Shown piece after piece: positions 8,225 to 61,504 of a stretch of 64,000 bases of DNA. Position numbers and translations under genes: made by a program. The DNA comes from a virus, in UHGV virus genome UHGV-1374697. One strand, written 5' to 3'. Under the pieces are notes generated by a model that saw only the letters and a program-made list of their open reading frames with translations, did no database searches and was not told the DNA's origin. Each line of letters starts with the position of its first letter. Position 1 is the stretch's first letter.

Positions 8225-8830
8225 CTATTTTAGCCAGCAGTCAGATTCAATATCGAAGTGAGCCTTTACTGACAGGTCGCAACCACATAAGGTACAATAG
8301 AGAGGGGCCGCCCCATCAGTCAGGTCCGCAAGCCCGGAAATTTTTTCCTTGAGGAATTTGCGGCCAGCTCCTTCGGCTCCACATGTGGCGCACCCCTGCT
8401 TCTCTAAATCCGGAGGAGGCGTAGAGGTAGCATAAGGACAGGAGGCGCAGATAGCATAGCGGCGGCGAGCTTCTGCCTCATCTACAAACCTGTGTCCCCG
8501 TCGATACCAGAGAACCATAGTTCCGAAGAAGGCCAATATCTTCTTGGCACTCATGGGTTCATACTCCTTCCATTCAATTCCCTTATCTCCGCAGGTGGTG
8601 CAGTACTGGGGAGGGAGAGAAGCGCAAAGCTCTGATTCAAAGAGCGCAACCTGAAAGGGTTCTCCGTTATTCATGAAGAGACGGGCGACTGATTTGCGGA
8701 GTTGTTCCAGTGAACCCGCGGAAACCTTGGTTCCCTTGAGCCTGACACTCATGGATTCAGGGACAATAAACTTCCAGCCTCCCGGAGGGGTGGCCATAAT
8801 ATGATTGGGTACTATACGAAAAGAGGGCAT
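8225..8830 (-). CDS. cysteine-rich hypothetical protein
   Basis: 201 aa with ~13 Cys including CTTCG, CATCG, CTLCGC pairs. Immediately downstream of the giant ORF. Confidence 0.45.
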   Translation of the reverse strand: MPSFRIVPNHIMATPPGGWKFIVPESMSVRLKGTKVSAGSLEQLRKSVARLFMNNGEPFQVALFESELCASLPPQYCTTCGDKGIEWKEYEPMSAKKILAFFGTMVLWYRRGHRFVDEAEARRRYAICASCPYATSTPPPDLEKQGCATCGAEGAGRKFLKEKISGLADLTDGAAPLYCTLCGCDLSVKAHFDIESDCWLK

Positions 8831-8881
8831 GGGAGAATTATATCTCCCATGCCCCCGAAGGTCAAGGATATAAACAGAGGA

Positions 8882-11800
8882 CTACTGCTTCATCCGATTA
8901 TGAATTTCCTCCGCACTCAATGCCCCGTCAATCTGAATGCTACCCTTCCTCATGAGGTTGATAATGAGTTTCTTCTGCTCTTCGATTAGGCGTTTGCCCT
9001 CGTCCGTGGTATTAGACTTCTGCAATTCGCGGTTGAGCTTCGCGATAGCCTCACGTCCTGCTTGCGGGCTGATGATGTAGGGCATGATGCCTTTCATGGC
9101 CGCGCCGTAGGTCTTGGCACTCATACCGGAACTCTCAATCGCGGAAGCCAGAACTTCCTTCCGCAGAGCGGGGTCAAGCATGTTTGTAATTTCCGTAACA
9201 AACCGGACACTATTGACTAGCTTGGTGAAATTCTTCACGGCATCCGCGGTTTCCGCGGCTTCCATAGATTCCACATCCACCCCGGATTCCATTCTCTTGT
9301 AGAAGTCCGGACGAAGGACGCTCATTCGCTTCGACTTAGTGACCGCCGCGTTGGCATTCTTTAACCCGGCGGCAAGGGCTTCGGTCAAATCCTTCGGACG
9401 ACGGAGGCCCGCACCCAAGGTCTGTAACCCGTATGCCGCGGCACTCATGTCGGGCGTATCACTAAACATTTGTTTACCAGACTTGACTGCCCAGCCGTAG
9501 ACGGGAATCTTTTTATTGGCAACCGTCGCGAATCGTTCAAGGACTTGCCATGTATGTCCACTGCCGAACGAGGGGTTCAGCCCTGCGGCCAACAGGATTG
9601 CGTTGCCGACTGCCGGGAGAACGTTGACACTTTCATCACCGGAGAGGCTATGCTTGTAATTGAAGTCTTCCTCATTAAACAATTCAGTAGCTGTGTTCAG
9701 AAGGAGGGATTCTTCAAGCACCGTATTTTCCAGCAGGTTTTTCAGTTCGGCAACCTTGTTCATCCCCCACTTGTCCACATCCATATCCATGAAGAGGCTG
9801 GGCAGGGTTTTGGCTAACACCCTGATGGTCTTGAACGGGTTCATGTATTCAAGGTTCAAATACTCGAACTCATGTCGCTTCATATCTATGATGCCAATCA
9901 AGTCCCCGAACTTATCATAGTCAGGAATTAGCCCACTATCTGCCAGCTTCCTCATGACTTCCGCGTCGTCAATGATTTTACGGTCATCGTCATCTCCCAA
10001 GACACTGGCGATAATCTGTCGGGCAACCCAGGAAGAGACCGCAGAGGTTGCAGAAATAGTTCCAAAGGAACCCGCGGCACGAAGGATAGCGCGTCCCAAG
10101 AGGTAAGCCCCCTCCTTCTTCATGCCGTTATTGATAGCCCACACACCGTCTACCCCTTCACCTATGGCGTGGCCAAGGTTGTAGGCTACAGACTGGAAGG
10201 TATGGTACTGGAACATGAAGAACGGAGCCGCAACTATATTCAGGGTTTTCACCCACGAAGGAGTACGCGAACCCGTGGGGAGCAAGCTCTTCACCATGTG
10301 GGCAGTATACCTGTCCACATAAGCATCCCAACTCTGGGTAGTCTGGCTCGCGTCAAGGAGTATCTGGTCCCGCGCATTGGGGTTGTCCTTGCCCATCGCC
10401 CGCGCCAGTTGTACCTTTAATTGGGTATCGGCAATCGCTCTCTGGTTAGTGAAGAGAACAATCTTGGCCGCCGCGTCCGGCAAGCCATAGGCGAAGGACA
10501 TCGTTTTGATGGGCCATGCTACGACTTTGCCCGCCATCTTGGCGGCATCCTTAGCCACCTCGCCCTTCGTCCGTTCCTGTTTCTCGTTCAGAGCTTCGGC
10601 CAGTTTGAAGAAGGAATCCTCATTCACTTCTTCAAATTCTCCTGCCATCTTACTGAACTCGTCAGACTTCCAGACGTTGCGCAGGAACTCCCCTTGACCT
10701 GCGTCCAGCAGACCAAGCTCTTGCCAGTAGCGAATCTTCTCGTTGTACCTGTCTTCCGCGGCCAGCAGTCTATCCGCGGAAGCCTGTGAAGCAAGGTCCT
10801 TGCCCTGTGATAGCCGCCGTAGCTTACGCAACTGGACCCAGTCCCCGACAAGGTTTGCGATGTCTTTACTCCCCGTGAATGGAAGTGCACCCGCATGGGT
10901 CATTTGAGCTACTGTACCATATAAGTTACGTAACGTGGAATTAGGGCTCGCTATTAAGACAGAAAGGTTAGCCAAGCCACCCGCCTTACTCCACCATCCT
11001 TGCCCCTTGCCGGACTTCTGCCAGTACTCGCGGACCTTCTTATAGTCATCCGTCCTGCTATTCAGGATGTCGTCGCTCGGCCTATAGATGTGGTAGATGG
11101 CATCAGCTACATCCTTGTCGGCGTACATTCCGTTCAACGCATTCTTCGTATTCTTCAAGGAGATTTCCACCATGTCCGAGGTACGGTTTGTGGAATTCGG
11201 GGGTACGACCACACCCTGCGCTTTCAGTACGGAGGCATACTCGTCAGCAAGCAACTGGTTCACGGCAATCTTCGACTGCATGGATAGGGTATTCTGCAAT
11301 GTCCCAATGGCGTCCCCAATGGTGAGGTCGCTAAGTTCATACATAGCTTTCCTCTGCCATTCGGGCAAGCGTTTCCGCTGGGCCAGCGCATCTTCATTCG
11401 TCCTCTTCTTGGACAGAACTTCGTCAATGGCCTTCATGGCATCGTTCACCGCAAGACGGGAGAGTTCCGGATACTGCAACACTTTCAAGTCGGTAGCGGA
11501 GATGACGTTGCCCATATTGTTCGCCCTCATGAGAATGCCCGCCTGACCCCGGAGAAGATTGAGCGTCTTGTCCAGTCGTTCTGCGGCATTCATATCAGGC
11601 GTGTTCCATATCTGGTCGATGGCCGAAGTCGGGATAGTGGGGATGGCCTTGTTCACTTCGGAAGCCACGGATGCCGGGGATTCAAGACTGCCGATTTTGT
11701 CCGCAATCGTTTCTCCCGGAAGGTCGGAGAAGACTTCGGCGAGGAAACTATCTCTGGCATTCCTGTCCAGAGTTTCCTTCGTCTCTGTCATCTTTGACTT

Positions 11801-14800
11801 CGTGCGATAGTCTGCCTGTGCTATCATGCTCATGGCCTTATCATATATGGCACTGATGTTATGGCCATCTCGCAGGTCTGCAAGCATTTGAACCGCGCCG
11901 AAGTTGTTCTGAATGAAGTCCAGAATTTCCCTGTTCCTGTAGTTCTTGGCTACACCTTCGAACAGGAGTTTATAATTCGCGGAGGCTCTCGGTGGAGCGG
12001 ATACCAGCGGAAGTTTCAACTCGTCGTGGAGCGCGGCCAATGCCTGCATGTTGTCCAGCACTTGGCTTACGTTTTCGGATAGTTCTCTCTGGTGCGCTTC
12101 GGCATGAGAGATTGCGGCTTCCTGCAACAGTTTCGTCAGACCGTCGTATTTCTGCGCCAGTTCTCCGTTGGGGTTTGCGATGATGTCCTTCATCGTCCGG
12201 GTGAAGTCTCCGGCATGGCGTCCTACGGCCATGTAGGTGCGATGAAGATAATTCATCTCCGCGGCGTTGTCAGCCATGCGGCTATCTCCAATGAGCTTGG
12301 CAATAGAGATTTGCGTTGCGGCAATTTCTTTACGGGAATCGGCGATGACATTGTGGACCAGTTGACCTACAACCCCCTGTGACAGAAGCCACTGTTCAGC
12401 GGCATCCCGCTTAGCCATATACTCCGCTTGTTTTTGACGGCGTGCATTGAGGATAGCGTTGTCCCGTTTCAGCCACACGGAACCGGCAGGGGTAGCTACG
12501 CCAGCGCGAGTTACACCCGCCTTCTTTGTTGCGGCGTAGAAATCCTCCTTGGCTTCCCGGATGATTTGTTTAGCTTCGGCCCGTGCCTTAGCGATGTCCT
12601 GAATCATAGGAGCGATGGCGGGATGGTTTGTACTCTCCGCATAGAGATAGTCATTGCGAAGGTTGGACCACCTGTCCAGAAGTTCATCCATAGAGAAGGG
12701 ACTATCCACCTCGTTAATCATATCCGCGAGATAGTTTTGCGTGTCGCGGGCAAGGCCAAAGTAGGTGGCTTCCAGATTGGCATTCCCCGTCGCGGAGATA
12801 CGAGAGCCAAGGTCGGAGAGCGATTTGTGAATCTGCTGGGAGAGCATGGGGAGAGCTACCTGCTTGTCCAGCATGGCTCCATATCCCTTGCCGCTCATGT
12901 CTTTAATCCGGCGCATCATGTCGTTGATTTCCAATCGCCCTTCACTATTAAGCGCAAGGGAGTTAGCCAGACGCACCGCTTCCGCGTGCCTATTGACGGC
13001 ATCGGTGACGGTCTTCTTAGCCAACGCGATACGGAAGTCGCGGGTCTGTTCATGCTGACGAACTTCTGCTTGAGCCTCTGCGTTAATGCGTGCAACGGTT
13101 TCAGGGTCAATGTCGTTGTCCATATTCCCTGACATGTCGAGAATGGACTTGCTCCATTTCTTTCGCGTAGCGGCATCCCAGCCCAGATTATCCGCACGGC
13201 GTTGAAGCATATCGCCGATTTTGTCAATGCGTTTAATACTGCGTTCATACGCCGCATTCACGTTTGCCATTTGTTCCAGCACAATCAGCTTCTGTTCCTC
13301 GGACTTAACATTGATGCCAGCCTTGTCCCAGTTCTTGGTTACACCCAGCCATCCGTTCTTAATACTAGTTACCCAGTTCCCGGCATTCGTGCCAATGATT
13401 TCTGCGCCAAGGCCGAAGGACAATCTCCGGGTCATGTCAGTCTCATAGGCCATCGGGTTAAAATAATCTACCCCGTTGCCCATAGTATAATCCGTATCGT
13501 CTACCTTCCACGACGGAGTGCGAGGCATATCGAACCACTTGCCGGGGGTCATGTCCGCGACGCGGGCCACATAGGAATCCCATTCAGCCGCGCGTTCTGC
13601 GGCGGTGGTTCCGTCCATATCGTCCGCAGTTTGTCGCACGTCCCTAATCAAATCCTTAAGCCATTCGACGAGGCGCACATGAATAGGCTTCCGGCCTCCC
13701 GCCGCTTCGGCATAGCGAGCCAAATCCGTGATGGTGATATTGTCTCCGCTAGCTTCCGCTACCATGAAGTTCATGACAGGATTGGAGAACGCGACACTGG
13801 CAAATTCGTCCGGGCCGCGGAGACCATAGTTGAGGTCGGAAGCGAGCGCGGCGATGGCATTCATCTCATTGATGTCCACGCTAGCGTCATACATAGCGGA
13901 GAGACTATCGACAATGTTGTTGTAGTTCTCTGCAATCGCGCTTCTAATCCTATCCATCCGCTGGGAATAGTCCGTGTTGGTGGTACGAAGATGACGGTCA
14001 ATGAGGTGGATGACTTCGTGTAGTACCGTTCCCGTTACGCTTTCAATCGGGTTATCCCGGTTCACGTACAGGTCAATGACACCGCCGACAAGCTTCCCGT
14101 CCGTGCCGTTCATGTAGGTGATACTGGCAGGGGAAGAGATGTTCGCCGGGGCATTGGTTGCACGGATAGCAACATCCAAACCAGCGGCATGCAGTGCGCG
14201 GAGCACTCCATCAATGGCCGCGGCCTGTGCGGGGGAGGCATTAACTTGAAGGTCCGAAAGGATGCCGTAGGCATTTGCGCCAGTCCCATCCGTCGGGAGA
14301 TTGAGAGCGGAGACCTTGTCTCCCCACTTGGTGCTGGGTGTCCCTCCCTCGCCCGTGTTGTACATGCTTGCGTGCGGAGCGATGACAATGGTTTCTCCCG
14401 TGTTGCTGGTAATCATGGGGGCGTTAATCCCGGTCATCTCGTTCAGGGAGACGAGCTTCGCGCCGCGCTCCAATGGCGTACCATAGGAGAGCCACGCACC
14501 AGTATTACTATCGAACGAGGCGATTGCCGCATCCATGTTATCCACAGTTTCCACGGAACTGGGGGTAACTACTCCCGTCTCTACCATAGCGGCAACGGGG
14601 GCAATAGCATTGTCCCTCTCCTTCCGGGCAATAGCTACCGGGGATTCCTTGGGTTCCGCGGTAGCCGTGGTAGCCGTGGTAGCCGTGGGTTCCGTCAATC
14701 CGTTAATAACGTTAATGGCGGCATCAAGGTCCTCGTCCCCTGTAGTAATGATGGACAGGTCGTCGTCTACTTCGATAACCTGAACCCGGTCTCCCATAGC

Positions 14801-17800
14801 ATCAAGGGCTTCGGACAACATGGTGCGCATGGTGTCGAGGTTTTCCTTATTTGGGAATGACAGGGTATTGGGCAGGTCGTTAATGGCTTCTGCCATGAAT
14901 GAGCTTGCCGCGGCACTGCCCTCATAGGTATATATTTCGGAGGCCCGTTCCACTAGGTTGCGGAACTGGGTGAAGTTGCTGATGCCCATACGGGTTGCTC
15001 CTTCCACCCACGCCTTGCGGGTTTCATCGGAGACTGCCAGACTTTCATGGGCAATGGATTTGTCCACCCATTCGCGGGCAACTTCCGCGGCATCCCCCTT
15101 CTCCCCGGCAATCTCGATAACCTTCTTTCCGGTTTCTACCAAGCTTTCTGGTACGTTGTTTTTGGTAATGGCTTTGCCCGTTTCCTCGATGATGTTGCTC
15201 GCATCTTTCGTAATATCCGGTAGCATGGAAGTAGCATCCTTTACATCTAGGGTGGGAACGGCTTCGGTTTGGAAACGTATGTTCCCTTCACCAGCTAAGT
15301 GGCTACCAACGTAGCCGCCGATACCACCAAGGAAAGCAATCTTCATGCCTGTGCTAATCACTTGGTCAGTAGTGGCAATAGAGGATTCGGAGATTTCTCC
15401 GTTCTTCACCAGTTCGGTAAACGCCCACTCTTGGAATTCGTCTGTCAGTTCTTCGGTGGCTCCTTCCACTACGGCCTTGCTCGTGCTGTACAGATAGGAA
15501 GCAACGGCAAACGTCTTTTCCTTCGTGTTCATCTCCTTAAATGGCTTGCTTCTCCATCCGGCAATCTTCCGTTCAAGGGTTTGGAATGGAGATTGACCGC
15601 GAAGGTTTTTAGCCCCAATAATCTTACGCATGTAGGAATCCATACCTGCGCGGTTGTTGATGAGAGTACTACCAGTAGATACGAGAGCCGCGCCAAAGAG
15701 GGCACGCATGTTAGCAATGCTCTGTGCCCTGTTCAAGTTCTCGGCAGTCGGTTCCTTCCCTTCCATCTCCCTATCATAAATGGTATAGAAGATGTCGGAG
15801 TAAGCATTCGGTGCAACCTGCGAGATGATGCTAAGATTTACCCCGGCTCCGGCTCCTGCCCGTTCGAGGTTCAACGCCGCAAGGTTGTCAAGGTTGCGCT
15901 GAATAGTTCCACTCAAACGTCCCGCCAATCCCGGACGGGCGGCAGGGACAAGAGCTTCGGCCCGCTTCGCTACAACGTTAGCCGTTGCCTTCATGAATTT
16001 ATTGAGCGCGGTACGTTCCAGTGCACGGCCAGCGAGGCCGCCAACTTTACCAGCCCCCGCGGTTGCTACCATTTGGTAGCCGAGGTTAGCGATTTCCGCA
16101 GTATAGTCCGCAAGGATATTGCCTCGAACCAACTCGGCTTCTGCTTCCTGTTTTTTGTTCAGCTGGTCCCAGAGGGTGCGGGTATGTTCCATCGCCGCAC
16201 GACTGCCAACTGCATTCTGTGCAAAGAGAAGAGCACCATAGGCGGTACTTGTCCCAAGGTCGATTGCCTTGTGCGTACCTATCTGTAACCCGCGGAGAAC
16301 AGAGTTGATGGTGTCTTGCCCTTTCTCCTGCCATGCGGAGAGGATGTCCTCGTCGCTCTTGCCCGCTTCCTTCTGTTCGTTGTAAAAATTCTTGAAGGAA
16401 AGGTGCTTGTCCAGATGCTTCATGGATTCAGTCAAGATAGGGTTGAACTGCAAGCCGGAGCCAAGCCACGTATCGCGAAGCGTCCCCAGCGTCTCGTCCA
16501 ATGCAATGTTGTCCTTCACAAGTTCCTGTGCGGATTTCTTGCGGAGGTTCTGGAACTTCTCAATGGTGCGATTGATGAGACCTTCGTCCGCGCCACTAGC
16601 ACGGAGAGCCTCAATGCTCTGGTCCATCAGCTTATCATTGTAGAGAGCATTGGGGTTCAGTTCGAGTGTGGCGTTCGTATCAACTTCCTTGGTGTGCGGG
16701 TTGTACACAAAGAGACTGCCACGGCCTACGCCCAAGTCACCCATGCGTGCGGCATGGGAGAGGGAGTTGAGGGCATCGCGAGTACTTTCAATATGGTACT
16801 GGTCCATGTACTCCTTCAACCTCTCCGGTCCGACTTCAAAGGATGGGCCGCCCGGCATGCCATACCACCATGTGCCACGCTTCGTTCCCTTCCTCCATTC
16901 CATCAAACTCATTGGGTCAGCGTACTTACCCACACTATTATCCGGTTGGAAGGTAAGTACGTCCGCAATTTGTCCCGCCGTGCTTCGGTAGTTAGCCAGT
17001 GCGCCTTTGACTGCATCCATGAGAGTGCCTTTCGGCGTGGCTTTGGCGGTATAGTCCTGAATCAGTTTGGTTACTCCCGCTTGGCGCAGGGCAGATTTTG
17101 GAACCCCCGGAAACCTTGTGGCCACGGCTTCCAGTATAGCCTCACTCATGCCAATCTGTTCGGGGTTTTCGACGGTCAGAGGGCGGTCCTTCTGGCGGTG
17201 AACTTCCTCGGCAATGACCTTTGCCCGTGCACGTATTGCGTCCATGTCAGCACCGGGGACTAAAGACAGAAGGGCAGAGGCCGCGGCCTCTGGATTGAGA
17301 AGCGCGTCGCGAAGTTCGAGATAGGGAAGGCCAGTGTAGTCCTCTTCGAGGCGTCTTACGATTTTGTCGGCTGTTTCTATCTGTTCACGAATCCTATCCT
17401 CAACAGGTTTTTCTTTTTTTGAAATGAGTTTTGCTTGGTCTGTATGGAGTTGTTTCGCATATGCGGTAGCAGATTCCGGGGAATCGAAAACTCCTAGATG
17501 CTTCCCTGTTTTTCGGAATTGTTCTATTGCTTCCTTTTCCGTTAAAAGTCTTCCATCTTCGGATACTGTGGGAATAAGGTATTCTTTATCATCAACCCCT
17601 ATGGACATAGACCGTACCGTACTCACGGAACCATCAGGGTTTTTAACTTGAGGGCGTTGATTCAAATCGAGATTACCTGCCTCCACCATACCAGAGATGT
17701 CGGTCAAAGCCCGATTTCCCGATATATAACTACCACTGTTCCGGGAAAGGTAATCCCCGTAGTCGCGGACAAGTTGGAACATTTTGCTGGGAGACTTGGA

Positions 17801-18808
17801 AAGGTTGGCGAGTTCAGCAAAAACATTCCCAGTAAATGAAGGTGCTGAATCAGAGAATTCGCCAACGCCAAGCTCCCCCACGCTCGTTTGGCTGGGGGTT
17901 TTCTTCTGCAAGCCCTCTGTCGAAGCGGCCCGGTATTTGTTGTAGAGAGACTTCGCGGCTCGGTAGTTGTCAATGTCTTCGCGCCTAATCGTATTGATGA
18001 CGCTTTCTATTTCTTCTGCGGTGTAAGCAATAGGTGCGGTCTCGATGGCTTGCGCCGTAGGTTTACCAGACACAACATCTAGATTCGAGTTGAGGTAATC
18101 CTTCCGGGCCTTTTCCATTGTGTTTGCAATGGATTTGGCCACCGCCTTTGCGTCCCGGTTTCTGTCCGCGGCAATGGCGAGGAACTTTTCCGTTACCACG
18201 GGGTTCCCATCTTCTCCACTTCCGAAGCCAGAGCGGGATAAGAAGGCGGGGTGCGTAGGCGTAAGCTCGGAAGAAGACACAACGGTAATTCCCGTATTGT
18301 TGGCAAGCTTCTTAAGGGCCTCACTATCGCCGCGGGAAGCGGCCTTCAAATCAACCAGCGCATCTTCGCCGCGGTCTACGTAATCTTTCGCGTCATCAAT
18401 CTCGACGAAGTTGAATCCACGGTTTCCACGGTTCAAGACACCGAGGGCTTTCTGCTCTTCCGCGGCTTGCCATCCGGCTTCCGTATGCGCCCTGCTCTTC
18501 TTGTCCCATTCCGCTTCATTTGCATCCTTGGCTTTCTGTGCCTGTTCCTTCTCAAAGTCATCGACAGACTTAAAGAGGAAGGTGTCATAGTCTGCGGTCG
18601 CCGTCGCTCCCTTCTCGGCACGGGTCTGTCTCTTTTCCGCTAACCTTTGCTCGCGGTCCAGTGCTTTCTGTTCTCGGTCCTGCTGTTTCTGCGCTTGCGT
18701 CTCTTGCCACGCGGCGTGCCTTTCTGCGGCACGTGATTCACGCGCGATACTACTTCCCGACGTCGGAGTGAAGTCGGACATATTGGCGGTACTAAAATCG
18801 ATGGCCAT
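8882..18808 (-). CDS. giant multidomain virion/ejection (polyvalent-type) protein, 3308 aa
   Basis: Uninterrupted 9.9-kb ORF. HExxH zincin-like motif (TVLHEVIHLID); hydrophobic channel-like segments near the C-terminus; long coiled-coil N-terminus; sits in the structural block. No RNAP DxDGD motif found. Confidence 0.7.
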   Translation of the reverse strand: MAIDFSTANMSDFTPTSGSSIARESRAAERHAAWQETQAQKQQDREQKALDREQRLAEKRQTRAEKGATATADYDTFLFKSVDDFEKEQAQKAKDANEAEWDKKSRAHTEAGWQAAEEQKALGVLNRGNRGFNFVEIDDAKDYVDRGEDALVDLKAASRGDSEALKKLANNTGITVVSSSELTPTHPAFLSRSGFGSGEDGNPVVTEKFLAIAADRNRDAKAVAKSIANTMEKARKDYLNSNLDVVSGKPTAQAIETAPIAYTAEEIESVINTIRREDIDNYRAAKSLYNKYRAASTEGLQKKTPSQTSVGELGVGEFSDSAPSFTGNVFAELANLSKSPSKMFQLVRDYGDYLSRNSGSYISGNRALTDISGMVEAGNLDLNQRPQVKNPDGSVSTVRSMSIGVDDKEYLIPTVSEDGRLLTEKEAIEQFRKTGKHLGVFDSPESATAYAKQLHTDQAKLISKKEKPVEDRIREQIETADKIVRRLEEDYTGLPYLELRDALLNPEAAASALLSLVPGADMDAIRARAKVIAEEVHRQKDRPLTVENPEQIGMSEAILEAVATRFPGVPKSALRQAGVTKLIQDYTAKATPKGTLMDAVKGALANYRSTAGQIADVLTFQPDNSVGKYADPMSLMEWRKGTKRGTWWYGMPGGPSFEVGPERLKEYMDQYHIESTRDALNSLSHAARMGDLGVGRGSLFVYNPHTKEVDTNATLELNPNALYNDKLMDQSIEALRASGADEGLINRTIEKFQNLRKKSAQELVKDNIALDETLGTLRDTWLGSGLQFNPILTESMKHLDKHLSFKNFYNEQKEAGKSDEDILSAWQEKGQDTINSVLRGLQIGTHKAIDLGTSTAYGALLFAQNAVGSRAAMEHTRTLWDQLNKKQEAEAELVRGNILADYTAEIANLGYQMVATAGAGKVGGLAGRALERTALNKFMKATANVVAKRAEALVPAARPGLAGRLSGTIQRNLDNLAALNLERAGAGAGVNLSIISQVAPNAYSDIFYTIYDREMEGKEPTAENLNRAQSIANMRALFGAALVSTGSTLINNRAGMDSYMRKIIGAKNLRGQSPFQTLERKIAGWRSKPFKEMNTKEKTFAVASYLYSTSKAVVEGATEELTDEFQEWAFTELVKNGEISESSIATTDQVISTGMKIAFLGGIGGYVGSHLAGEGNIRFQTEAVPTLDVKDATSMLPDITKDASNIIEETGKAITKNNVPESLVETGKKVIEIAGEKGDAAEVAREWVDKSIAHESLAVSDETRKAWVEGATRMGISNFTQFRNLVERASEIYTYEGSAAASSFMAEAINDLPNTLSFPNKENLDTMRTMLSEALDAMGDRVQVIEVDDDLSIITTGDEDLDAAINVINGLTEPTATTATTATAEPKESPVAIARKERDNAIAPVAAMVETGVVTPSSVETVDNMDAAIASFDSNTGAWLSYGTPLERGAKLVSLNEMTGINAPMITSNTGETIVIAPHASMYNTGEGGTPSTKWGDKVSALNLPTDGTGANAYGILSDLQVNASPAQAAAIDGVLRALHAAGLDVAIRATNAPANISSPASITYMNGTDGKLVGGVIDLYVNRDNPIESVTGTVLHEVIHLIDRHLRTTNTDYSQRMDRIRSAIAENYNNIVDSLSAMYDASVDINEMNAIAALASDLNYGLRGPDEFASVAFSNPVMNFMVAEASGDNITITDLARYAEAAGGRKPIHVRLVEWLKDLIRDVRQTADDMDGTTAAERAAEWDSYVARVADMTPGKWFDMPRTPSWKVDDTDYTMGNGVDYFNPMAYETDMTRRLSFGLGAEIIGTNAGNWVTSIKNGWLGVTKNWDKAGINVKSEEQKLIVLEQMANVNAAYERSIKRIDKIGDMLQRRADNLGWDAATRKKWSKSILDMSGNMDNDIDPETVARINAEAQAEVRQHEQTRDFRIALAKKTVTDAVNRHAEAVRLANSLALNSEGRLEINDMMRRIKDMSGKGYGAMLDKQVALPMLSQQIHKSLSDLGSRISATGNANLEATYFGLARDTQNYLADMINEVDSPFSMDELLDRWSNLRNDYLYAESTNHPAIAPMIQDIAKARAEAKQIIREAKEDFYAATKKAGVTRAGVATPAGSVWLKRDNAILNARRQKQAEYMAKRDAAEQWLLSQGVVGQLVHNVIADSRKEIAATQISIAKLIGDSRMADNAAEMNYLHRTYMAVGRHAGDFTRTMKDIIANPNGELAQKYDGLTKLLQEAAISHAEAHQRELSENVSQVLDNMQALAALHDELKLPLVSAPPRASANYKLLFEGVAKNYRNREILDFIQNNFGAVQMLADLRDGHNISAIYDKAMSMIAQADYRTKSKMTETKETLDRNARDSFLAEVFSDLPGETIADKIGSLESPASVASEVNKAIPTIPTSAIDQIWNTPDMNAAERLDKTLNLLRGQAGILMRANNMGNVISATDLKVLQYPELSRLAVNDAMKAIDEVLSKKRTNEDALAQRKRLPEWQRKAMYELSDLTIGDAIGTLQNTLSMQSKIAVNQLLADEYASVLKAQGVVVPPNSTNRTSDMVEISLKNTKNALNGMYADKDVADAIYHIYRPSDDILNSRTDDYKKVREYWQKSGKGQGWWSKAGGLANLSVLIASPNSTLRNLYGTVAQMTHAGALPFTGSKDIANLVGDWVQLRKLRRLSQGKDLASQASADRLLAAEDRYNEKIRYWQELGLLDAGQGEFLRNVWKSDEFSKMAGEFEEVNEDSFFKLAEALNEKQERTKGEVAKDAAKMAGKVVAWPIKTMSFAYGLPDAAAKIVLFTNQRAIADTQLKVQLARAMGKDNPNARDQILLDASQTTQSWDAYVDRYTAHMVKSLLPTGSRTPSWVKTLNIVAAPFFMFQYHTFQSVAYNLGHAIGEGVDGVWAINNGMKKEGAYLLGRAILRAAGSFGTISATSAVSSWVARQIIASVLGDDDDRKIIDDAEVMRKLADSGLIPDYDKFGDLIGIIDMKRHEFEYLNLEYMNPFKTIRVLAKTLPSLFMDMDVDKWGMNKVAELKNLLENTVLEESLLLNTATELFNEEDFNYKHSLSGDESVNVLPAVGNAILLAAGLNPSFGSGHTWQVLERFATVANKKIPVYGWAVKSGKQMFSDTPDMSAAAYGLQTLGAGLRRPKDLTEALAAGLKNANAAVTKSKRMSVLRPDFYKRMESGVDVESMEAAETADAVKNFTKLVNSVRFVTEITNMLDPALRKEVLASAIESSGMSAKTYGAAMKGIMPYIISPQAGREAIAKLNRELQKSNTTDEGKRLIEEQKKLIINLMRKGSIQIDGALSAEEIHNRMKQ

Positions 18809-24625: not shown

Positions 24626-25387
24626 TTATTTCCTTGACAACAGAGTTAGGGCGTAAGCATGTCGCGCATTGCATCGGTTGGACCAGCCGGAGAGAAACTT
24701 CGCCTTCACTGGATTGGCCCTTACAATGGAACAGTAGCGGGCACGACAAGCACGGTCCAGCGAATCGAGAACTTCCTTTTCATCCCATGATTGAATGGCG
24801 TCTGTCCATTTGGCTTGAGTATTTTTCCCCCACTTGCCATCAATACCAATGTCGAGCATGCGCTGGACGACCTTAGTCGTTCCCGCCACGCCCATGTTGA
24901 AGGTCATGTCACGAAGCATGAACTCAATGGCGTAGCATCCTGCAACTCCCTTGGCAACCAGTGGTTCCGTATTGGCGAGAACATAGCGGAGGCATTCATC
25001 CCATGCCGCATCCCTGTCGCCCCGGTCCATCATGGATTTGATTAGATTGAATTCCTTGGGTTCAATCCCATCACAGATACCGGCAATCTCCCACTTGCCG
25101 CCGCCATCACCCGAGGGGAGGCGAGTTACGCGCAGAGAATCGGGACCTGTAATCTTGTAGTCCTCCATGTTGAGAATCTTCTTTGCCATGTCCTTGCGGA
25201 CAAGCTCGGCCGGAGGTTCCACGGGACCCGCGGATACCGGGGAATCGTTGGGTTGTTCATCGGGTTCCACGGAAACCGTGGGTTGTATCTTCTTCCATAT
25301 AGCATCAATGGTCTTATCACCAAGGATACCGTCGGGTGAAGTTCCCGCCCACTTCTGTATTTCCTTTATCTTGTCTTTCCTTGTCAT
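24626..25387 (-). CDS. peptidoglycan-binding-domain protein, putative endolysin
   Basis: N-terminal PG_binding_1-like repeat WAGTSPDGILGDKTIDAIWKK. The catalytic domain is not recognised. Confidence 0.45.
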   Translation of the reverse strand: MTRKDKIKEIQKWAGTSPDGILGDKTIDAIWKKIQPTVSVEPDEQPNDSPVSAGPVEPPAELVRKDMAKKILNMEDYKITGPDSLRVTRLPSGDGGGKWEIAGICDGIEPKEFNLIKSMMDRGDRDAAWDECLRYVLANTEPLVAKGVAGCYAIEFMLRDMTFNMGVAGTTKVVQRMLDIGIDGKWGKNTQAKWTDAIQSWDEKEVLDSLDRACRARYCSIVRANPVKAKFLSGWSNRCNARHAYALTLLSRK

Positions 25388-25833
25388 CGGTTTCTTTCTA
25401 CTTTGATTCCGTCTGGGGTTAGCTTCCCCATTGAGATTTGAAGATTAATAATGTTAGCCATCGACCGGGCTATCTCTTCGCCCCATTGCTTGAAATGAAG
25501 AGTGCCCAACGGGGTGGGGATTTCGTGAGTAATGCTTGCGACAACGTAGCCATCCAACATAACCCGAATTATATTCGAGCATACTTTTTCTACCTTGGCT
25601 TCCGTGGGTACGAGTTCGATTTCATACCACATGACCTCCTGTATCTCTTCATCTTCATCCCCTTGCGGGTAATGGACACGAACGACGCCAGCATCATCCT
25701 CGTCGGACACTACCCGAAGGATAGAATCGACGGGGATGCTATCTCCACAGGTCCCACATCTCCCCGTATCTACTCTGCGAACGATGTTGCCGTACTTAAA
25801 TCTGCTCTTACCTTTTCCGGGCTCTACTTTCAT
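25384..25833 (-). CDS. hypothetical protein (paralog of 25830..26300)
   Basis: Shares RFKYGNIVRRVDTGR and WYEIELV motifs with the neighbouring ORF. Confidence 0.45.
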   Translation of the reverse strand: MKVEPGKGKSRFKYGNIVRRVDTGRCGTCGDSIPVDSILRVVSDEDDAGVVRVHYPQGDEDEEIQEVMWYEIELVPTEAKVEKVCSNIIRVMLDGYVVASITHEIPTPLGTLHFKQWGEEIARSMANIINLQISMGKLTPDGIKVERNR

Positions 25834-26300
25834 TTCTTTTCTTTTTCGTTTATATCAGGTAATATGACATGCTCGTTAAGGTCCTCAACGATTTGATTAG
25901 CCCAGTCCACTACTTCCTCGCACATATCGACCTCTTGGTCGCCCAGCCGGTACTTGGTAGGTATGCGGAGAACGGGCTGATAGTTGAAGAGGATGATAGC
26001 CTCGTCCCGTGTGTATCGGACGAAGACTTCATGTTTGGTCTCTTCCACTAGCTCAAACTCGTAGAAGGGATACCACTTCCCTTCGTTGTCCTCGGTCTTG
26101 ACAAGGATGCAGTGGTTCCTATCTTCTCCGCCTTGAACATACGCTAAGGAACCCTCCGCTAGGCTCTCCCATATTTCTGGATGCCTTCCTGTGTTGATGA
26201 ACCGAACAAGGTCTCCCTTTTTGAATCTGCGCTTATCTGTCATTGATGTTGTTCCTTTTCGACGAAGGTAATCCCCGTGTCGGATTCTTCCGTCGTGCAT
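25830..26300 (-). CDS. hypothetical protein (paralog of 25384..25833)
   Basis: RFKKGDLVRFINTGR ... WYPFYEFELV. 4-bp overlaps with both neighbours. Confidence 0.45.
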   Translation of the reverse strand: MHDGRIRHGDYLRRKGTTSMTDKRRFKKGDLVRFINTGRHPEIWESLAEGSLAYVQGGEDRNHCILVKTEDNEGKWYPFYEFELVEETKHEVFVRYTRDEAIILFNYQPVLRIPTKYRLGDQEVDMCEEVVDWANQIVEDLNEHVILPDINEKEKK

Positions 26301-26488
26301 TTCTTAATCTTGTCACGAAGTTCGATTGCCATTTTGAGGGCACAGTCCCTTGTCGGAAGTCCCTTCTCATCCTCGCTCCTGTGATAGGGGAACATAGCGA
26401 TACGGTAGTTTCGATGAATCACCGCAATGATTCCTGCTCGCGGGTATTCCATTAAGAAGGTTTCCAGTAGATATTTATCGTTGGTCAT
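26240..26488 (-). CDS. small-protein family member 6 (divergent) of the tandem paralog array
   Basis: Conserved core AMFPYH...GLPTRDCALKMAIELRDKI aligns with the YC...TKKQAKKLADKLARKI core of the other members. Confidence 0.5.
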   Translation of the reverse strand: MTNDKYLLETFLMEYPRAGIIAVIHRNYRIAMFPYHRSEDEKGLPTRDCALKMAIELRDKIKKCTTEESDTGITFVEKEQHQ

Positions 26489-26723
26489 TGTTGTTCCTTT
26501 CCCGTTTAACGAGTTTAAATCCTTTTTTGGTTTCGATAATCATGCTCTTGTCAATTTTGCGGACTAGCTTCTCGGTCAGCTTCTTGGCTTGCTTCTTGGT
26601 GAAATGTCCTTCCTCGCCTTCCGTGCAATAGTAAAAGGCGGCAACGCAACAGTTTTCAAGCATGACCCGGAAAAATCCGGCAACGGGGTCATCTACGGTG
26701 GTAATATTTAGAGTGTCAGTCAT
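26475..26723 (-). CDS. small-protein family member 5
   Basis: MTDTLNITTVDDP...GFFRV...CCVAAFYYC...FTKKQAKKLTEKLVRKI. N-terminal 24 nt identical to member 3. Confidence 0.55.
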   Translation of the reverse strand: MTDTLNITTVDDPVAGFFRVMLENCCVAAFYYCTEGEEGHFTKKQAKKLTEKLVRKIDKSMIIETKKGFKLVKRERNNNDQR

Positions 26724-26952
26724 TAGTATTGTTCCTTTTAAGTTTGATTCCCATCTTTGTTTCTATGACCGTGCTCTTCTCAATTTTGCGGGCGAGCTTG
26801 TCAGCTAGTTTCTTAGCTTGCTTCTTGGTGAAGAAGCCACTTTCCTCTGCCACGCAATAGTTGAAAACGGCGACGCAACTTCCCATGTGCTTGACGCGGA
26901 ACATTCCGCTAGTAGGGAGGTCATAAATACGGGTATCTGAATCGTTATTCAT
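26716..26952 (-). CDS. small-protein family member 4
   Basis: GMFRV...CVAVFNYC...FTKKQAKKLADKLARKIEKS. 8-bp overlaps with neighbours. Confidence 0.55.
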   Translation of the reverse strand: MNNDSDTRIYDLPTSGMFRVKHMGSCVAVFNYCVAEESGFFTKKQAKKLADKLARKIEKSTVIETKMGIKLKRNNTND

Positions 26953-27181
26953 TGATGTTGTTCCTTTCCAATTTGATTCCCTTTTCGGTTTCGATAATCA
27001 TGCTCTTCTCGATTTTGCGGGCGAGCTTGTCGGCTAGTTTCTTAGCTTGCTTCTTGGTGAAGAAGCCACTATCATCTTTCACGCAATAGTAAAAGGTGGC
27101 AACGCAACAGTTTTCAAGCAGGACCCAGAAAAATCCGATATCGGGGTCATCTATGGTGGTAATATTTAGAGTGTCAGTCAT
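26945..27181 (-). CDS. small-protein family member 3
   Basis: MTDTLNITTIDDP...CCVATFYYC...FTKKQAKKLADKLARKIEKS. Confidence 0.55.
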   Translation of the reverse strand: MTDTLNITTIDDPDIGFFWVLLENCCVATFYYCVKDDSGFFTKKQAKKLADKLARKIEKSMIIETEKGIKLERNNINE

Positions 27182-27413
27182 CGATGTTGAAAATGATTTG
27201 GTTAAGTGATACTCCCTCGATGGTACAAACTGTCCCTCTGCTAACTATGTAGCGGGCAATCTTCGTTGCCAGTTTCTTTGCGGAATCTCGTGTCATATAT
27301 CCTTGTTCACCAGAGCCTGTGCAGTAAAGAAAATCTGCAATGACACTTCCACAGTGAGTTACTCGGAAGAATCCAAATCCTTTGTCTTCTAAAATAGCTA
27401 CTTTGTCGTTCAT
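27174..27413 (-). CDS. small-protein family member 2
   Basis: GFFRVTHCGSVIADFLYC...MTRDSAKKLATKIARYI. Confidence 0.5.
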   Translation of the reverse strand: MNDKVAILEDKGFGFFRVTHCGSVIADFLYCTGSGEQGYMTRDSAKKLATKIARYIVSRGTVCTIEGVSLNQIIFNIDD

Positions 27414-27416
27414 GGT

Positions 27417-27671
27417 TTATTCGTCTTTGATTGTACAGTCCGTCGGGTAAAGGTCAATGCCCCTTTCTGTCATAACAGGATTCGTGTGGATGAGATGGCG
27501 AGCAACCATCTTCGCCATTTCTATAGCCCTTTCGCGCGTGGGATAACACTGTTCCTTCTCGTCTCCCTCCCGACAATAGTTAAAGATGGCAAAGGTATCT
27601 CCATCATATTTCACCTTGAGGATTCCTACTCTCTTATTATCTACAATACTAATCTCGTTGGTCTTCTCCAT
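27417..27671 (-). CDS. small-protein family member 1 (most divergent)
   Basis: GILKVKYDGDTFAIFNYC...PTRERAIEMAKMVARHL. Confidence 0.5.
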   Translation of the reverse strand: MEKTNEISIVDNKRVGILKVKYDGDTFAIFNYCREGDEKEQCYPTRERAIEMAKMVARHLIHTNPVMTERGIDLYPTDCTIKDE

Positions 27672-27675
27672 TGGT

Positions 27676-28179
27676 CTATGCGTTTGCGGTTTCTATTTTT
27701 GAGGGGTCGCCGGGAATGGCAATCTCCCAACAGAAGGAGGCGATGAAATCGTTGCGAAGAGTTACCTCTTCTCCGACTTTATACCATCCATCGGGAAGGA
27801 GATAATCCCTCTTCATATCAATGGCGGCTCCTGCCTCTATTGGTTCCAACGCCATGAAACGGTAGTCCCATTCGCCGCTCTCGGTCTTGAACGATTGCAG
27901 GATGAACCAAGGAGTAACGTCGGCATCTCCATCCTCGGTTTCCTCCCCAGTAGGCGTTCCTACGACGCGGGCACAATAACCGTTCCTCATGTTCTCCAAG
28001 GCAACCCCGAAGGGCAGGTTGAAGTGAGAGAGGGAATAGGCAATAACGCCCCATGTCAAGGACCGGGCGCGGGAGCAAACCCCGTCAAGCCTTGGAAGTA
28101 CCGTGGCTATTACTTCGGGGTTGCTCTCCGGGCCGTCGGAACAAAGAAAAAATTCTCGGACGCGAGTTGTTGTAGGCAT
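27676..28179 (-). CDS. hypothetical protein
   Basis: 167-aa ORF in the co-directional operon. Confidence 0.4.
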   Translation of the reverse strand: MPTTTRVREFFLCSDGPESNPEVIATVLPRLDGVCSRARSLTWGVIAYSLSHFNLPFGVALENMRNGYCARVVGTPTGEETEDGDADVTPWFILQSFKTESGEWDYRFMALEPIEAGAAIDMKRDYLLPDGWYKVGEEVTLRNDFIASFCWEIAIPGDPSKIETANA

Positions 28180-28187
28180 GGGTTCTA

Positions 28188-28559
28188 TTAGACGTAATTG
28201 TTCAGTAGTCCGTAAATCTTTTGGGCACTCTGCTCGAAGTCCTCTGCCAGTTTCCTTAGCGCGGGTTCATTCCCGGCAATGGTGTAGAGGTAGGGAACGA
28301 TGTCATGTAGGATGACATTTCTGTACAGGATAATGCAATTAGTAGAAGTATCGGGCAACACGGGACGCACCAACATGGGCTTTACCTTCCAGTCGCGGCC
28401 ATGTAGTCCGAGATAGGTTTCAATGAAACTGTCGGCAATGCCGCCCAATTCTTCTACCGCATCATCGTATCGTTCATGATGGAATCCACTACTTGTCTGG
28501 TAATGGAGGACCTTCAGGACGGGGTAGAGTTGCAGGATGTGGGATAAATCTAATTGCAT
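28188..28559 (-). CDS. hypothetical protein
   Basis: 123-aa ORF. Confidence 0.4.
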   Translation of the reverse strand: MQLDLSHILQLYPVLKVLHYQTSSGFHHERYDDAVEELGGIADSFIETYLGLHGRDWKVKPMLVRPVLPDTSTNCIILYRNVILHDIVPYLYTIAGNEPALRKLAEDFEQSAQKIYGLLNNYV

Positions 28560-32874: not shown

Positions 32875-34011
32875 TCATTTTTCTTGGGACTTCATAGTTA
32901 ATACGAAGCTATTCCAGCGGGCTACCGCTTCTTCGCGAGTGCGGCCATGAATGGAAATGCTATGAGGAAGAAGCTTGGCCCCGTTGCAGACGACATAGCA
33001 ATGTTCCTCTCCGGGATAGATGGTTTCCCCCACGACCTCCGGGATTTCTCCACAGTAGGGGCAGGGTCGAGGATGGGCATTGCGTTCATTCACGAACCGG
33101 AGTGCCGCTTGCTTCACTCTTTCGGCAAACATATCAACAATATGCTTCGGCACAATGTGCTTCAGCACAATTCCTTCGTCCCCGGAATCCGTGGCTTCCT
33201 CGTAGTTCAGGAGATGGCCCAGCCCTTCGTCGAAACAGGAGAGACAGGGTTCCACAGATTTGTCCAGATTTTTGTACTTACATGTATCACATGTGGGTCT
33301 CATGATGGTCTCTTCCCCATCCTTGTCCTCCGCTTCTTCATATTCCGGGTACTCAATTCCCCGCTCCCGTCGGCAATGTGAGCATGGAGGATTGCAACGG
33401 AGGTTATCCCGGTGAGTGCAAGTATTGCACGGTTCGATGACATCGTCGTTCTCGTCCGTACCTTCGGCACATGGGGTTGCCTCGTCGGGAGTGTAGTTAT
33501 CATACCAGTTGCAGGAGTGACAGGGTTCCACAGACCTATCCAGATTTTTGTACTTACAGGTGTCACAGGTCCGCTTCAACAATTCTTCTTCCTGCTTCCT
33601 CCGCGCAGATTCATCTGGGGTATAATTCTGATAGCCGTTGCAGGAGATGCAGGGTTCCTCTTCGATAGATACCCCCTTATGTTTACATGTCAGACAGGTA
33701 GGACCAGCCATCTCGGCTTCCCTCTGCTTTATCACTTCCCGCTTCATCATCTCCATCTCTACCAATTTGTTGGTATCGGAGGTGAAGCTGGGAAGTCCGG
33801 GAGTGAGAGCACACTTCCGGCAAGGGGATTGCACTATCGGGACATCGCGGAATTTGCAGAGGGAGCACCTCCGTGCATCCTCGCTTGCCGCGGTGTCCGT
33901 CGCTTGCGTGGATTCAAAGTGGCTAAAGTCCTTGTCGCAGGAAGCACAGGGTTCCGCGGTTTCGGGGAGGTGGCTGTATTTGCAGGTCCAACAATTTGGT
34001 TCGTCGGTCAT
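32875..34011 (-). CDS. poly-zinc-ribbon protein (seven CxxC-Xn-CxxC units)
   Basis: Repeated units such as CDTCKYKNLDRSVEPCHSC and CLTCKHKGVSIEEEPCISC. Matching ~50-bp DNA-level internal repeats at ~33250 and ~33522. Confidence 0.55.
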   Translation of the reverse strand: MTDEPNCWTCKYSHLPETAEPCASCDKDFSHFESTQATDTAASEDARRCSLCKFRDVPIVQSPCRKCALTPGLPSFTSDTNKLVEMEMMKREVIKQREAEMAGPTCLTCKHKGVSIEEEPCISCNGYQNYTPDESARRKQEEELLKRTCDTCKYKNLDRSVEPCHSCNWYDNYTPDEATPCAEGTDENDDVIEPCNTCTHRDNLRCNPPCSHCRRERGIEYPEYEEAEDKDGEETIMRPTCDTCKYKNLDKSVEPCLSCFDEGLGHLLNYEEATDSGDEGIVLKHIVPKHIVDMFAERVKQAALRFVNERNAHPRPCPYCGEIPEVVGETIYPGEEHCYVVCNGAKLLPHSISIHGRTREEAVARWNSFVLTMKSQEK

Positions 34012-35019: not shown

Positions 35020-35442
35020 TTACTCGGCTTGCTCCATTCCCCACGGCCATTCAACTATCCTGCCGGGTTCAATGCTTCGTCCGTCTTCCAACAGGATGCG
35101 CATGGAGACACGGGTTCTTCCTGCAACGATTCCAGTATGCCGACGGAACATACCGTCGAAGTACTGGATTTCGTCACCGGGTTGAAGACGCAGAACCGGA
35201 GGGAGTTCTTCAATAAACTGGCGGGCGGTAAGCCATGCCTTTTCCTTCGCCTCTTCATAATCGTCACTGTCATCTCCCAGCACCGCTAATTCGCAACTCA
35301 TACACTCTACGAACACGTAGTTGCCGCGATGTGCTTCTCTCAATAGGCCGCCGCAGATTGGGCAGAACAGTTGAGGAGGTCCCTCTTCCTCTGGGAATAC
35401 TTCGTCAATAGTAATCTGTTTGGTGTTTGATGTCTTGGACAT
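35020..35442 (-). CDS. zinc-ribbon protein
   Basis: CPICGG...CMSCE. Preceded by the CTTGACAAATAATAAAA motif. Confidence 0.45.
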   Translation of the reverse strand: MSKTSNTKQITIDEVFPEEEGPPQLFCPICGGLLREAHRGNYVFVECMSCELAVLGDDSDDYEEAKEKAWLTARQFIEELPPVLRLQPGDEIQYFDGMFRRHTGIVAGRTRVSMRILLEDGRSIEPGRIVEWPWGMEQAE

Positions 35443-41515: not shown

Positions 41516-42727
41516 TCATAATCCAAAGGCACTACCAATAATGTCCCCGACTGCGGTCGGCCCAGCGGGCGGCTGGGTCTCTGGGGCTTCAGGGCTACCA
41601 CCGTTAGCGGAGGGGCGGGCCTTGCGGAGTTTGGCCACCTTCACGTTGAGAGCCTCAATCGTTGCCCTCGCGTCTGCCAATTCCTTGACCATGAGTTCCG
41701 CAAGTGCTCCATCCATGAAGGAACCATTATTTATCTTGTGGGCAAGATGGCGGGCATGCTTCACATTCTCTTCGGTAATCTCCGTGGTCATGCCCAGTTC
41801 CTTGGCGCGTTCCTTCATCGCTTCCAATGTGTAGTTATCGAGATTGACGGTGTAGGTCCCGGCCTCCGACTTGCCACCGCGGCTAGCCTTCAACTCTTCC
41901 ACATACTTGTCGGCTTCGGCCTGATAGTTTCCGTGGGCGACAATGGCCGCGTCGCGGACCTTAGCCATGCGGACAAATTTGAACACGGCAGAATCGCTAA
42001 TGCCCAGTTCCTTCCCAATGGCCTCATACGCTTCTTCGCGGTCGTACTCGTCGAGGTCGGGATTAAGGGCAACTTCATTCAGCTTGTCCATGTCCAGAGA
42101 TGCACCAGAGGCGCGGGCAATCTCCGCAAGTTTGGCGTTGGCCTTATTATACGGGGCAGTTACATTGGTCTTGTATTCTTCGGTTGCGGTGAAGGCATAG
42201 CCGCGTACAATCTCGCGCAGAGATTCAAGCTCTTCATTGTTGGGAGAGGATTTACCCGCTTCTTCCAGCTTGGCCTTCAAGTCCGCGATTTCTTTCTTCG
42301 CGCCCCTTAACTGGACGCGCATCTCGGCGAATGCCTTGCTCGCGGCCTTGCTCGCTTTCTGTTCCTTAGGACTATTGTTCTGTTCCTCCTCGTTGTTCTG
42401 TTCCTCTTCATTGTTCTGTTCCTCTTCATTGTTCTGTTCCTCGTCATCCCCGGATTCCGTGGTATCACCGTTGTTCTGTTCATCGTCAACGACGGTTCCC
42501 GTGGTATTGACTACTTCATCATCCGCGATGCGGGGACCAGCGTTCGGCATGACTACCGTACCGTCCGGGGATTCAATGGGAGCCGTGGGGTTAGCGGGAT
42601 TGGTGGGTTGAGTGGAATCCGTGGGTTCCGGGGCGAACAGGGTCTGTTCAAAAATGTTATGTATGTCGTTGTGAATAGCACCATCTATGATGCCCTCCGC
42701 TACTGCGGGAATATTTACGTTGTCCAT
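41516..42727 (-). CDS. scaffolding-like protein
   Basis: Acidic repeats (EEQNNEEEQNN x4), long coiled-coil region, C-terminal AVGDIIGSAFGL. Sits between portal and MCP. Confidence 0.5.
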   Translation of the reverse strand: MDNVNIPAVAEGIIDGAIHNDIHNIFEQTLFAPEPTDSTQPTNPANPTAPIESPDGTVVMPNAGPRIADDEVVNTTGTVVDDEQNNGDTTESGDDEEQNNEEEQNNEEEQNNEEEQNNSPKEQKASKAASKAFAEMRVQLRGAKKEIADLKAKLEEAGKSSPNNEELESLREIVRGYAFTATEEYKTNVTAPYNKANAKLAEIARASGASLDMDKLNEVALNPDLDEYDREEAYEAIGKELGISDSAVFKFVRMAKVRDAAIVAHGNYQAEADKYVEELKASRGGKSEAGTYTVNLDNYTLEAMKERAKELGMTTEITEENVKHARHLAHKINNGSFMDGALAELMVKELADARATIEALNVKVAKLRKARPSANGGSPEAPETQPPAGPTAVGDIIGSAFGL

Positions 42728-61403: not shown

Positions 61404-61437
61404 CCACATGTGTGTACGCCCCCTTTCCAAATCTCCT

Positions 61438-61504
61438 GAATTTAATCGAGCGTCCTACCCTAGAACGCGCCGCAACCCTCCCTCCGCTACAACTATCCAC
61501 CCGG
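61438..61504. repeat. 65-bp direct repeat, copy 1
   Basis: GAATTTAATCGAG(C/G)GTCCTACCCTAGAACGCGCC(G/A)CAACC...CCGCTA(C/T)AACTA(T/C)CC(A/G)CCCG, shared with 61916-61982. Confidence 0.5.

Follow-up and report, generated by a model that had tools for sequence, protein, structure and literature searches.

A variable tandem array of small paralogous genes in a human-gut phage genome

The virus genome UHGV-1374697, from an uncultured phage of the human gut, was analysed over a stretch of 64,000 nucleotides (nt), here called the window. Between positions 26240 and 27671 it carries six consecutive paralogous genes on the minus strand (c1 to c6), each encoding a protein of 78-84 amino acids (aa). As neighbouring homologous genes in a single orientation, they form a tandem paralogue array (Table 1). 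A preliminary description made from the sequence alone had placed these genes at the same coordinates and had taken them for translationally coupled true paralogues of a family that it did not recognise, and all of this is borne out here. Scans of the six copies and their neighbours against Pfam, PHROG and NCBIfam gave no family match above threshold for the array copies, a PDB sequence-profile search returned nothing below an expect value (E) of 0.2, and a Foldseek search of the predicted viral structures in BFVD returned nothing better than E 0.04. Nor do the copies match, in sequence or structure, any characterised anti-defence protein, the known families being those in PHROGs, Pfam and NCBIfam. 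The protein family is new and lineage-restricted; the phenomenon, a variable tandem array of small accessory phage paralogues, is a known one.

Genes of the array and their products

Adjacent genes of the array overlap by 8 nt (c2/c3, c3/c4 and c4/c5) or by 14 nt (c5/c6), as had been described before, but the 3 bp listed as a further overlap, between c1 and c2, turned out to be a spacer (TAA ACC ATG). Overlaps of 4 nt continue past the array, at c6/d137 (ATGA), d137/d149 and d149/endolysin. The two members previously singled out for identical 5′ ends are c3 and c5, and the identity extends over 27 nt rather than 24. A conserved 24-nt element found at the junctions encodes a (K/E)RNN tail together with the start codon of the next gene, and is a likely place for unequal recombination. 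Reading the junction sequence AAAGGAAC as a Shine-Dalgarno site is doubtful. Shine-Dalgarno-like motifs occur upstream of 11 of the 52 minus-strand gene starts (8225-60532), against a background of 21%, and four of these 11 are array junctions. Since such motifs do not rise above background, AAAGGAACAAC..ATGA is less likely to bind ribosomes than to be an element of coding and recombination. The same observation points to a host with Shine-Dalgarno-independent initiation, such as a member of the Bacteroidota.

Table 1. Coordinates of the array, its junction element and the adjoining genes in the window. pI, isoelectric point; dN/dS, ratio of nonsynonymous to synonymous substitution rates
Feature	Position	Strand	Length	Remarks
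c1	27417-27671	(-)	84 aa	Acidic, pI 5.4; in most related arrays, at an internal position in some
c2	27174-27413	(-)	79 aa	Most widely kept copy; start 3 nt past the c1 stop codon
c3	26945-27181	(-)	78 aa	Central subgroup; mosaic; missing from many related arrays
c4	26716-26952	(-)	78 aa	Central subgroup; basic, pI 9.6; copy used for modelling
c5	26475-26723	(-)	82 aa	Central subgroup; pI 9.1; least constrained orthologue group, dN/dS 0.74
c6	26240-26488	(-)	82 aa	Divergent; last in most arrays; overlaps the next gene by ATGA
d137	25830-26243	(-)	137 aa	N-domain, residues 12-65; C-domain, residues 73-125
d149	25384-25833	(-)	149 aa	Paralogue of d137
u167	27676-28179	(-)		Conserved flanking gene; upstream edge of the variable island
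Endolysin	24626-25387	(-)		PG_binding_1 and PG_binding_3 domains, PHROG 315; downstream edge of the island; 4-nt overlap with d149
Junction element	26945-26968, 26716-26739 and 26236-26259		24 nt	Conserved; coding strand reads AAAGGAACAAC..ATGA

The six proteins align end to end, with 25-73% amino-acid identity (42-83% at the nucleotide level). Residues G16, V20, A28, F30 and Y32, a helix-capping Thr, an Ala within the helix and the Gly of the C-terminal hairpin are invariant across c1-c6; the same five residues, along with T42, A46 and G68, are kept as core and turn residues in all subfamilies. A profile built from the six copies retrieves 198 database proteins (top E 3e-42), and the best 120 of these 198 all have E-values of 6e-26 or lower, so the similarity among c1-c6 is not due to chance. 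At alternate positions of strands 2 and 3 (19, 21, 25, 29 and 31), and in some stretches of the helix and hairpin, the residues are either typical of a subfamily or variable. The isoelectric points of the paralogues span 5.4-9.6, several members being acidic.

The AlphaFold2 model of c4, built from an alignment of 127 sequences, is confident (mean predicted local distance difference test (pLDDT) score 84, predicted template modelling (pTM) score 0.71). In it, residues 7-12, 17-22 and 25-31 form strands, 43-59 a helix, and 61-65 and 68-72 the two strands of a hairpin. The proteins of the family are small and soluble, and their predicted fold combines three strands with an amphipathic helix and, at the C-terminus, a hairpin. 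The beta-beta-alpha layout proposed from the sequence alone was only partly right, as the model has a third strand, a long helix and the C-terminal hairpin. If the conserved hydrophobic positions face the helix, the variable alternate positions would make up the exposed face of the sheet. None of the six small paralogues contains a hydrophobic stretch of membrane-segment length, which makes them unlike holins or antiholins.

With orthologues taken from related loci, dN/dS was 0.31-0.42 for c1, c2, c3, c4 and c6. Whole-gene values were below 1 in every orthologue group, c5 included. By this measure, the copies are real protein-coding genes that evolve under purifying selection.

The family does not end with c6. 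It runs on, as a fused domain, into the two genes downstream, d137 and d149, which the preliminary description had missed. The d137 open reading frame (ORF) had been listed from an ATG at 26300; its homologues begin MTDKRRFKKGD, and the true start is therefore the ATG at 26243. Its N-terminal domain is an SH3/KOW-like barrel; in some relatives the gene calls give this barrel an ORF of its own, of 75 aa, which matches d137 over half its length. The C-terminal domain has three strands, one hairpin and one helix; it is probably the array family domain in truncated form. The N-terminal domains of d137 and d149 are homologous (BLASTP E 2e-7), and the two proteins can be aligned over their full length.

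For d149 the relation to the array is more direct. The profile of the six copies aligns colinearly with its C-terminal residues 82-145 (hhalign E 1.4e-4), the T..GIK(V/L)E hairpin motif of the family is retained, and its 3′ end has DNA-level similarity to c3 and c4 (repeat families D3 and D4). The large family alignment also matches the d137/d149 alignment at E 4e-4. Moreover, one database protein (P0124) is an in-register chimera in which c1 is fused, within the helix, to the C-terminus of d149; other database proteins are chimeras between array copies. In all, the locus holds seven family domains that are secure, and probably eight.

Variation of the array among related loci

Scanning related loci with the family hidden Markov model yielded 61 complete arrays. 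Their copy number ranges from one (one array) through two (5), three (6), four (14), five (13) and six (13) to seven (nine arrays), and at least 26 different arrangements occur. None of the members is shared by all 61, and at least one copy is present in every related locus examined. The preliminary description had named a lack of conservation in related phages as evidence that would count against it; the family is conserved there, and arrays are present too. It is the c3/c4/c5 subgroup that grows and shrinks. Some arrays have an extra c1′ copy, and an arrangement with an internal c1, c2-c3-c4-c5-c1-c4′/c5′-c6, is recurrent.

The surroundings of the array are far more uniform. The u225 and u167 flanks are 96-99% identical in nearly all loci of the 70-kb type and 89-94% identical in the few most divergent ones, and u167 is 93-99% identical in those 70-kb-type loci that hold it complete. 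Among relatives, d137 is 78-97% and d149 67-96% identical, with distinct alleles. On this comparison, the variable island extends from c1 through d149 and is bounded by u167 and the endolysin gene.

Recombination is also visible within single copies. Nucleotides 1-100 of c3 are about 91% identical to c5, nucleotides 112-180 differ from c4 at two positions, and nucleotides 181-200 are c5-like again. The earlier suggestion that some of the duplication or recombination is recent was well founded, c3 being a c5/c4/c5 mosaic. Copy-number polymorphism and mosaic copies thus occur together in relatives with conserved flanks. Homologous recombination between copies makes mosaics and shifts the copy number between one and seven, and each individual copy is dispensable.

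Phage lineage and genome context

The family is rare. An exhaustive HMMER scan of 1.84 billion cluster representatives found only 23 that match it, and a search of 185,579 genomes representing bacterial and archaeal species turned up neither c4 nor anything closely related to it. All located homologues lie on human-gut metagenome contigs, almost all of 60-72 kb and with a common gene order. Two larger contigs (173 kb and 130 kb) hold a diverged c1′-c2′-d137′ module. In the 173-kb contig (L035) this module follows a 116-aa ORF, itself just downstream of a receptor-binding-like gene with BppL_N repeats. Some 2 kb further downstream in the same contig, a gene (8751-9917) encodes a fusion of NADAR and DUF488. 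NADAR enzymes are known to reverse DNA ADP-ribosylation, so the genes of this neighbourhood may be concerned with counter-defence. A DUF5856-like gene, for a protein of about 120 aa, is also found near the array, both in the window (28188-28559, minus strand) and in L035 (7087-7452). It matches PHROG 858 (‘starvation-inducible transcriptional regulator’), with all matches below threshold, and is absent in some of the 70-kb relatives.

Searches against GenBank phages gave no DNA match, no match to c4 or to a 378-aa ORF of the window, and no tblastn match to the terminase; the identity of the DNA polymerase A to GenBank phages is 27% at most. By these comparisons, the phage lacks any close relative in culture. 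Identity with LoVEphage was considered and rejected: LoVEphage is temperate, with nine transfer RNA genes and mixed gene orientation, whereas the window has no transfer RNA genes. A complete TnpB/IS605 OrfB gene (4665-5876, plus strand), with HTH_OrfB_IS605, OrfB_IS605 and Cas12f1-like TNB domains, lies on the strand opposite to nearly all other genes of the window. It is uninformative as to the host, as its closest bacterial and archaeal relatives are only 42% identical and taxonomically scattered.

The window also codes for DNA polymerase A, a VapE-like primase/helicase, a DEAD-box helicase, a PD-(D/E)XK nuclease, an NAD-dependent ligase, the large terminase subunit and the endolysin. Ahead of the array lie the terminase gene and a block of large ORFs that have no annotation and are presumed to be structural; lysis genes come after it. 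It belongs to a tight operon that runs from about 29706 to 24626, in which the four genes upstream of the array are spaced by 2-14 nt. The operon begins with a 225-aa gene, and the 5′ end of this gene, beside a 160-nt upstream gap, has a sigma-70-like site (29729-29702); apart from this site, the promoter and terminator scan was uninformative. No RNA family was found in the window by an Rfam scan. The preliminary description had put the array between glycosyltransferase genes and lysis genes. The endolysin gene is indeed just downstream, but no glycosyltransferase match in Pfam or PHROG was found among the neighbouring ORFs scanned. Instead, the ORFs upstream comprise unknowns, one winged-helix protein and Lar-like zinc-ribbon proteins (weak matches). 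The immediate upstream neighbour, u167, was considered as an additional family member and rejected.

Two of the ORFs further upstream are possible anti-restriction genes, as judged from weak profile matches. The 378-aa ORF (32875-34011, minus strand) contains three internal 59-nt repeats (33236-33996) and weakly matches PHROG 599, a Lar-like restriction-alleviation family, and a 140-aa ORF (35020-35442, minus strand) weakly matches, below threshold, the zinc-ribbon model Lar_restr_allev of Pfam. On the other side of the array, an ORF of 3308 aa (8882-18808, minus strand) has no match in Pfam or PHROG. Giant virion RNA polymerases are known in N4-like and crAss-like phages; the size of this ORF and its position behind the lysis and tail-like genes recall them, which we offer as an idea only.

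Several repeats were observed elsewhere in the window. About 12 head-to-tail copies of an iteron-like 18-19-nt unit, GTTAGGCTGGACTTA(T)AAA, are found at 63069-63292 and are possibly a replication origin or an array of protein-binding sites. Next come a 9-nt unit, CTTGAAGCC, present eight times (63311-63391), and then GGGGAACCG repeats (63489-63547). At 60580-61073, the non-coding region upstream of the VapE-like gene contains nested inverted repeats of 41 nt (90% complementarity) and 34 nt (94%), as well as direct repeats of 45-64 nt, and an 89-nt direct repeat is present at 61435-61523 and 61913-62001. Finally, a 9-nt-periodic motif, GGAATCCGTGG, and its variants occur in 18 places within coding regions, including 59775-59820, 42600-42636 and 25218-25245, where they probably encode Pro/Thr/Glu-rich linkers on the minus strand.

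Possible roles of the array proteins

The reading that we prefer, tentatively and at somewhat less than an even chance, is that the array encodes interchangeable small binding proteins built on one scaffold, which would serve as putative host-interaction or counter-defence factors. The paralogues would be binding modules that show different surfaces on a common scaffold. Their partners in the infected cell would vary, and would most probably be factors of the host or proteins of its defence. The array would then work as a natural gene ‘accordion’, its repertoire being reshuffled by unequal crossing-over, and d137 and d149, in which an SH3/KOW-like domain is joined to the family module, would functionally be part of this set. 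A role in counter-defence or host takeover would fit the way in which copy number changes and the fact that each member is dispensable. The narrow distribution of the family, its diversified surface on a conserved core, the weak Lar-like matches upstream in the window and the NADAR gene near the module in L035 also count in favour of the host-interaction reading.

Two known systems are alike in part. In T-even phages, anti-defence genes are amplified in tandem, as for tifA in T4 and, driven by SegB, in T6 (PMC9391042, PMC13096335). There too, small accessory phage genes stand in tandem, recombination alters how many there are, and no single copy is indispensable. The T-even repeats are recent and nearly identical and were selected in the laboratory against a defined defence system, whereas the array described here consists of old, diverged copies (25-73% identity) of an unrelated family in natural populations. 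Similarly, polymorphic strings of immunity genes, for example esaG in Firmicutes, evolve by homologous recombination between paralogues (PMC9484751, PMC3482391). They share with the array non-identical small paralogues, variable copy number, mosaics and deletions, and a conserved scaffold with a diversified surface. The esaG-type arrays are bacterial, lie beside a toxin gene and neutralise known toxins, whereas the present array belongs to a phage genome of the lytic type, where no toxin partner can be recognised. Both precedents would support a host-interaction role by analogy only.

Several observations weigh against this role. The best fold match of the c4 model is AP2, a nucleic-acid-binding domain, and this favours a role in nucleic-acid binding. 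Because whole-gene dN/dS is below 1 in every orthologue group, positive selection is not demonstrated. The position of the array in a long same-strand operon suggests late expression, and many counter-defence genes are expressed early. Part of the copy-number variation could also stem from short-read assembly. On this last point, the longest exact matches between copies in the window are 38 nt and 27 nt, below the final k-mers common in assemblers, and several architectures recur in loci of different collections and samples; most of the variation is therefore probably real.

Among the alternatives, the one that fares best is an AP2- or Arm-like set of nucleic-acid-binding proteins, that is, DNA or RNA regulators or architectural proteins with differing sequence preferences, acting for example in late transcription or genome organisation. 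Such a set is supported by the fold, which is AP2-like, by a basic helix and by fusion to a KOW-like partner. The AP2/ERF and integrase Arm domains have a three-stranded sheet packed on a helix. They show no significant profile similarity to the array family, which differs in an extra N-terminal strand arrangement, a C-terminal hairpin, several acidic members and the lack of the AP2 Arg/Trp pattern. In AP2 domains (AtERF1), the DNA contacts are made by Arg and Trp residues on the exposed sheet face. The corresponding positions of the array family (19, 21, 25, 29 and 31) vary (K/R/W/A etc.), with no basic residue conserved.

The profile tests were also negative. None of the 127 members matched Pfam AP2 (PF00847) at E up to 1, and when the family alignment was compared by hhalign with five AP2 domains from the PDB, the outcome was P 0.77 with one aligned column. 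Arm-DNA-bind_4 (PF14657) gave sub-threshold matches in 46 of the 127 members (best E 0.013). Two of these matches reached 13.7 and 12.4 bits, against a gathering cut-off of 22.3 bits, and those listed with coordinates cover profile positions 23-46 only, a 24-residue segment beginning GFFTKKQAKKLA. With the genuine Arm_4 protein P0248, hhalign aligned 13 residues at E 0.06. Membership in the AP2 and integrase Arm families was rejected, hhalign being negative for both. For the double-stranded RNA-binding domain family, the combination of alpha-beta-beta-beta-alpha topology and a conserved KKxAK helix start was not found in the array proteins. The small-protein family DUF6723 (Pfam), of similar length (a profile of 73 positions), gave the only weak matches that cover nearly the full domain. 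They come from eight members of the c1 type, with E 0.008 at best; in c1 itself, residues 13-63 align with profile positions 19-67. The scores of the array family, about 12-17 bits, fall far under the gathering score of 27. We conclude that the family has at most an AP2-like mini-fold and is no demonstrable member of the AP2, Arm or double-stranded RNA-binding domain families. With these negative tests, the acidic members and a sheet face that is not conserved, the nucleic-acid-binding role is rather unlikely.

The proteins could alternatively be virion-associated or assembly accessories, either chaperones or adaptors of receptor-binding proteins or internal proteins that are packaged and ejected, with a copy number that tracks tail-fibre and host-range modules. 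The genome context is suggestive of this: within its same-strand operon the array comes after the terminase gene and the genes presumed to be structural, it adjoins the lysis genes, and the genes for proteins of 985 aa and 3308 aa are downstream of it, and in L035 the receptor-binding-like gene with BppL_N repeats is near the c1′-c2′-d137′ module. Stoichiometric parts would not usually be individually dispensable, nor be present in one to seven copies between near-identical flanks. A confident placement in a characterised structural or assembly family had been named beforehand as a finding that would overturn the first interpretation, and the profile searches placed no member in any characterised family; no structural PHROG and no BFVD model matched the array family. 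The internal proteins of T4 carry an N-terminal targeting peptide, and no common peptide of this kind is found in the array proteins. We regard a virion-associated role as quite unlikely.

It is very unlikely that the array is a neutral or decaying product of slippage or recombination, or a modulator of lysis timing by virtue of its adjacency to the endolysin and holin-like genes: copies are gained and lost freely, c5 is weakly constrained and the array is coupled directly to the endolysin gene, but all six ORFs are intact, five orthologue groups have low dN/dS, the fold is confidently predicted with a core conserved in copies only 25% identical, every related locus examined (the 61 complete arrays included) keeps at least one copy, and the six small paralogues are without a membrane-length hydrophobic stretch.

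Returning to the host-interaction reading, a more specific form of it can be proposed. The array would be a so far unnoticed counter-defence or host-takeover cassette of a widespread lineage of Bacteroidota-type gut phages, in which an AP2-like scaffold has had its nucleic-acid face turned into a hypervariable protein-recognition surface, and accordion-like recombination among the one to seven copies, with the two SH3/KOW-fused ones, would tune which defences or strains are overcome. This form is speculative and, taken as a whole, unlikely.

Whatever their role, the array genes form a compact and well-delimited variable island, with conserved flanks and one to seven interchangeable 80-aa genes, that is easy to test by synthesis and expression. 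If the proteins are ordinary ones, for example redundant DNA-binding proteins, the value of the finding would lie in the annotation of a few hundred hypothetical proteins. If they are inhibitors or modulators, they would add a new family to the few anti-defence or takeover factors of phages of gut anaerobes, and the array would be a natural case of repertoire change through tandem-array recombination in an abundant human-gut phage.

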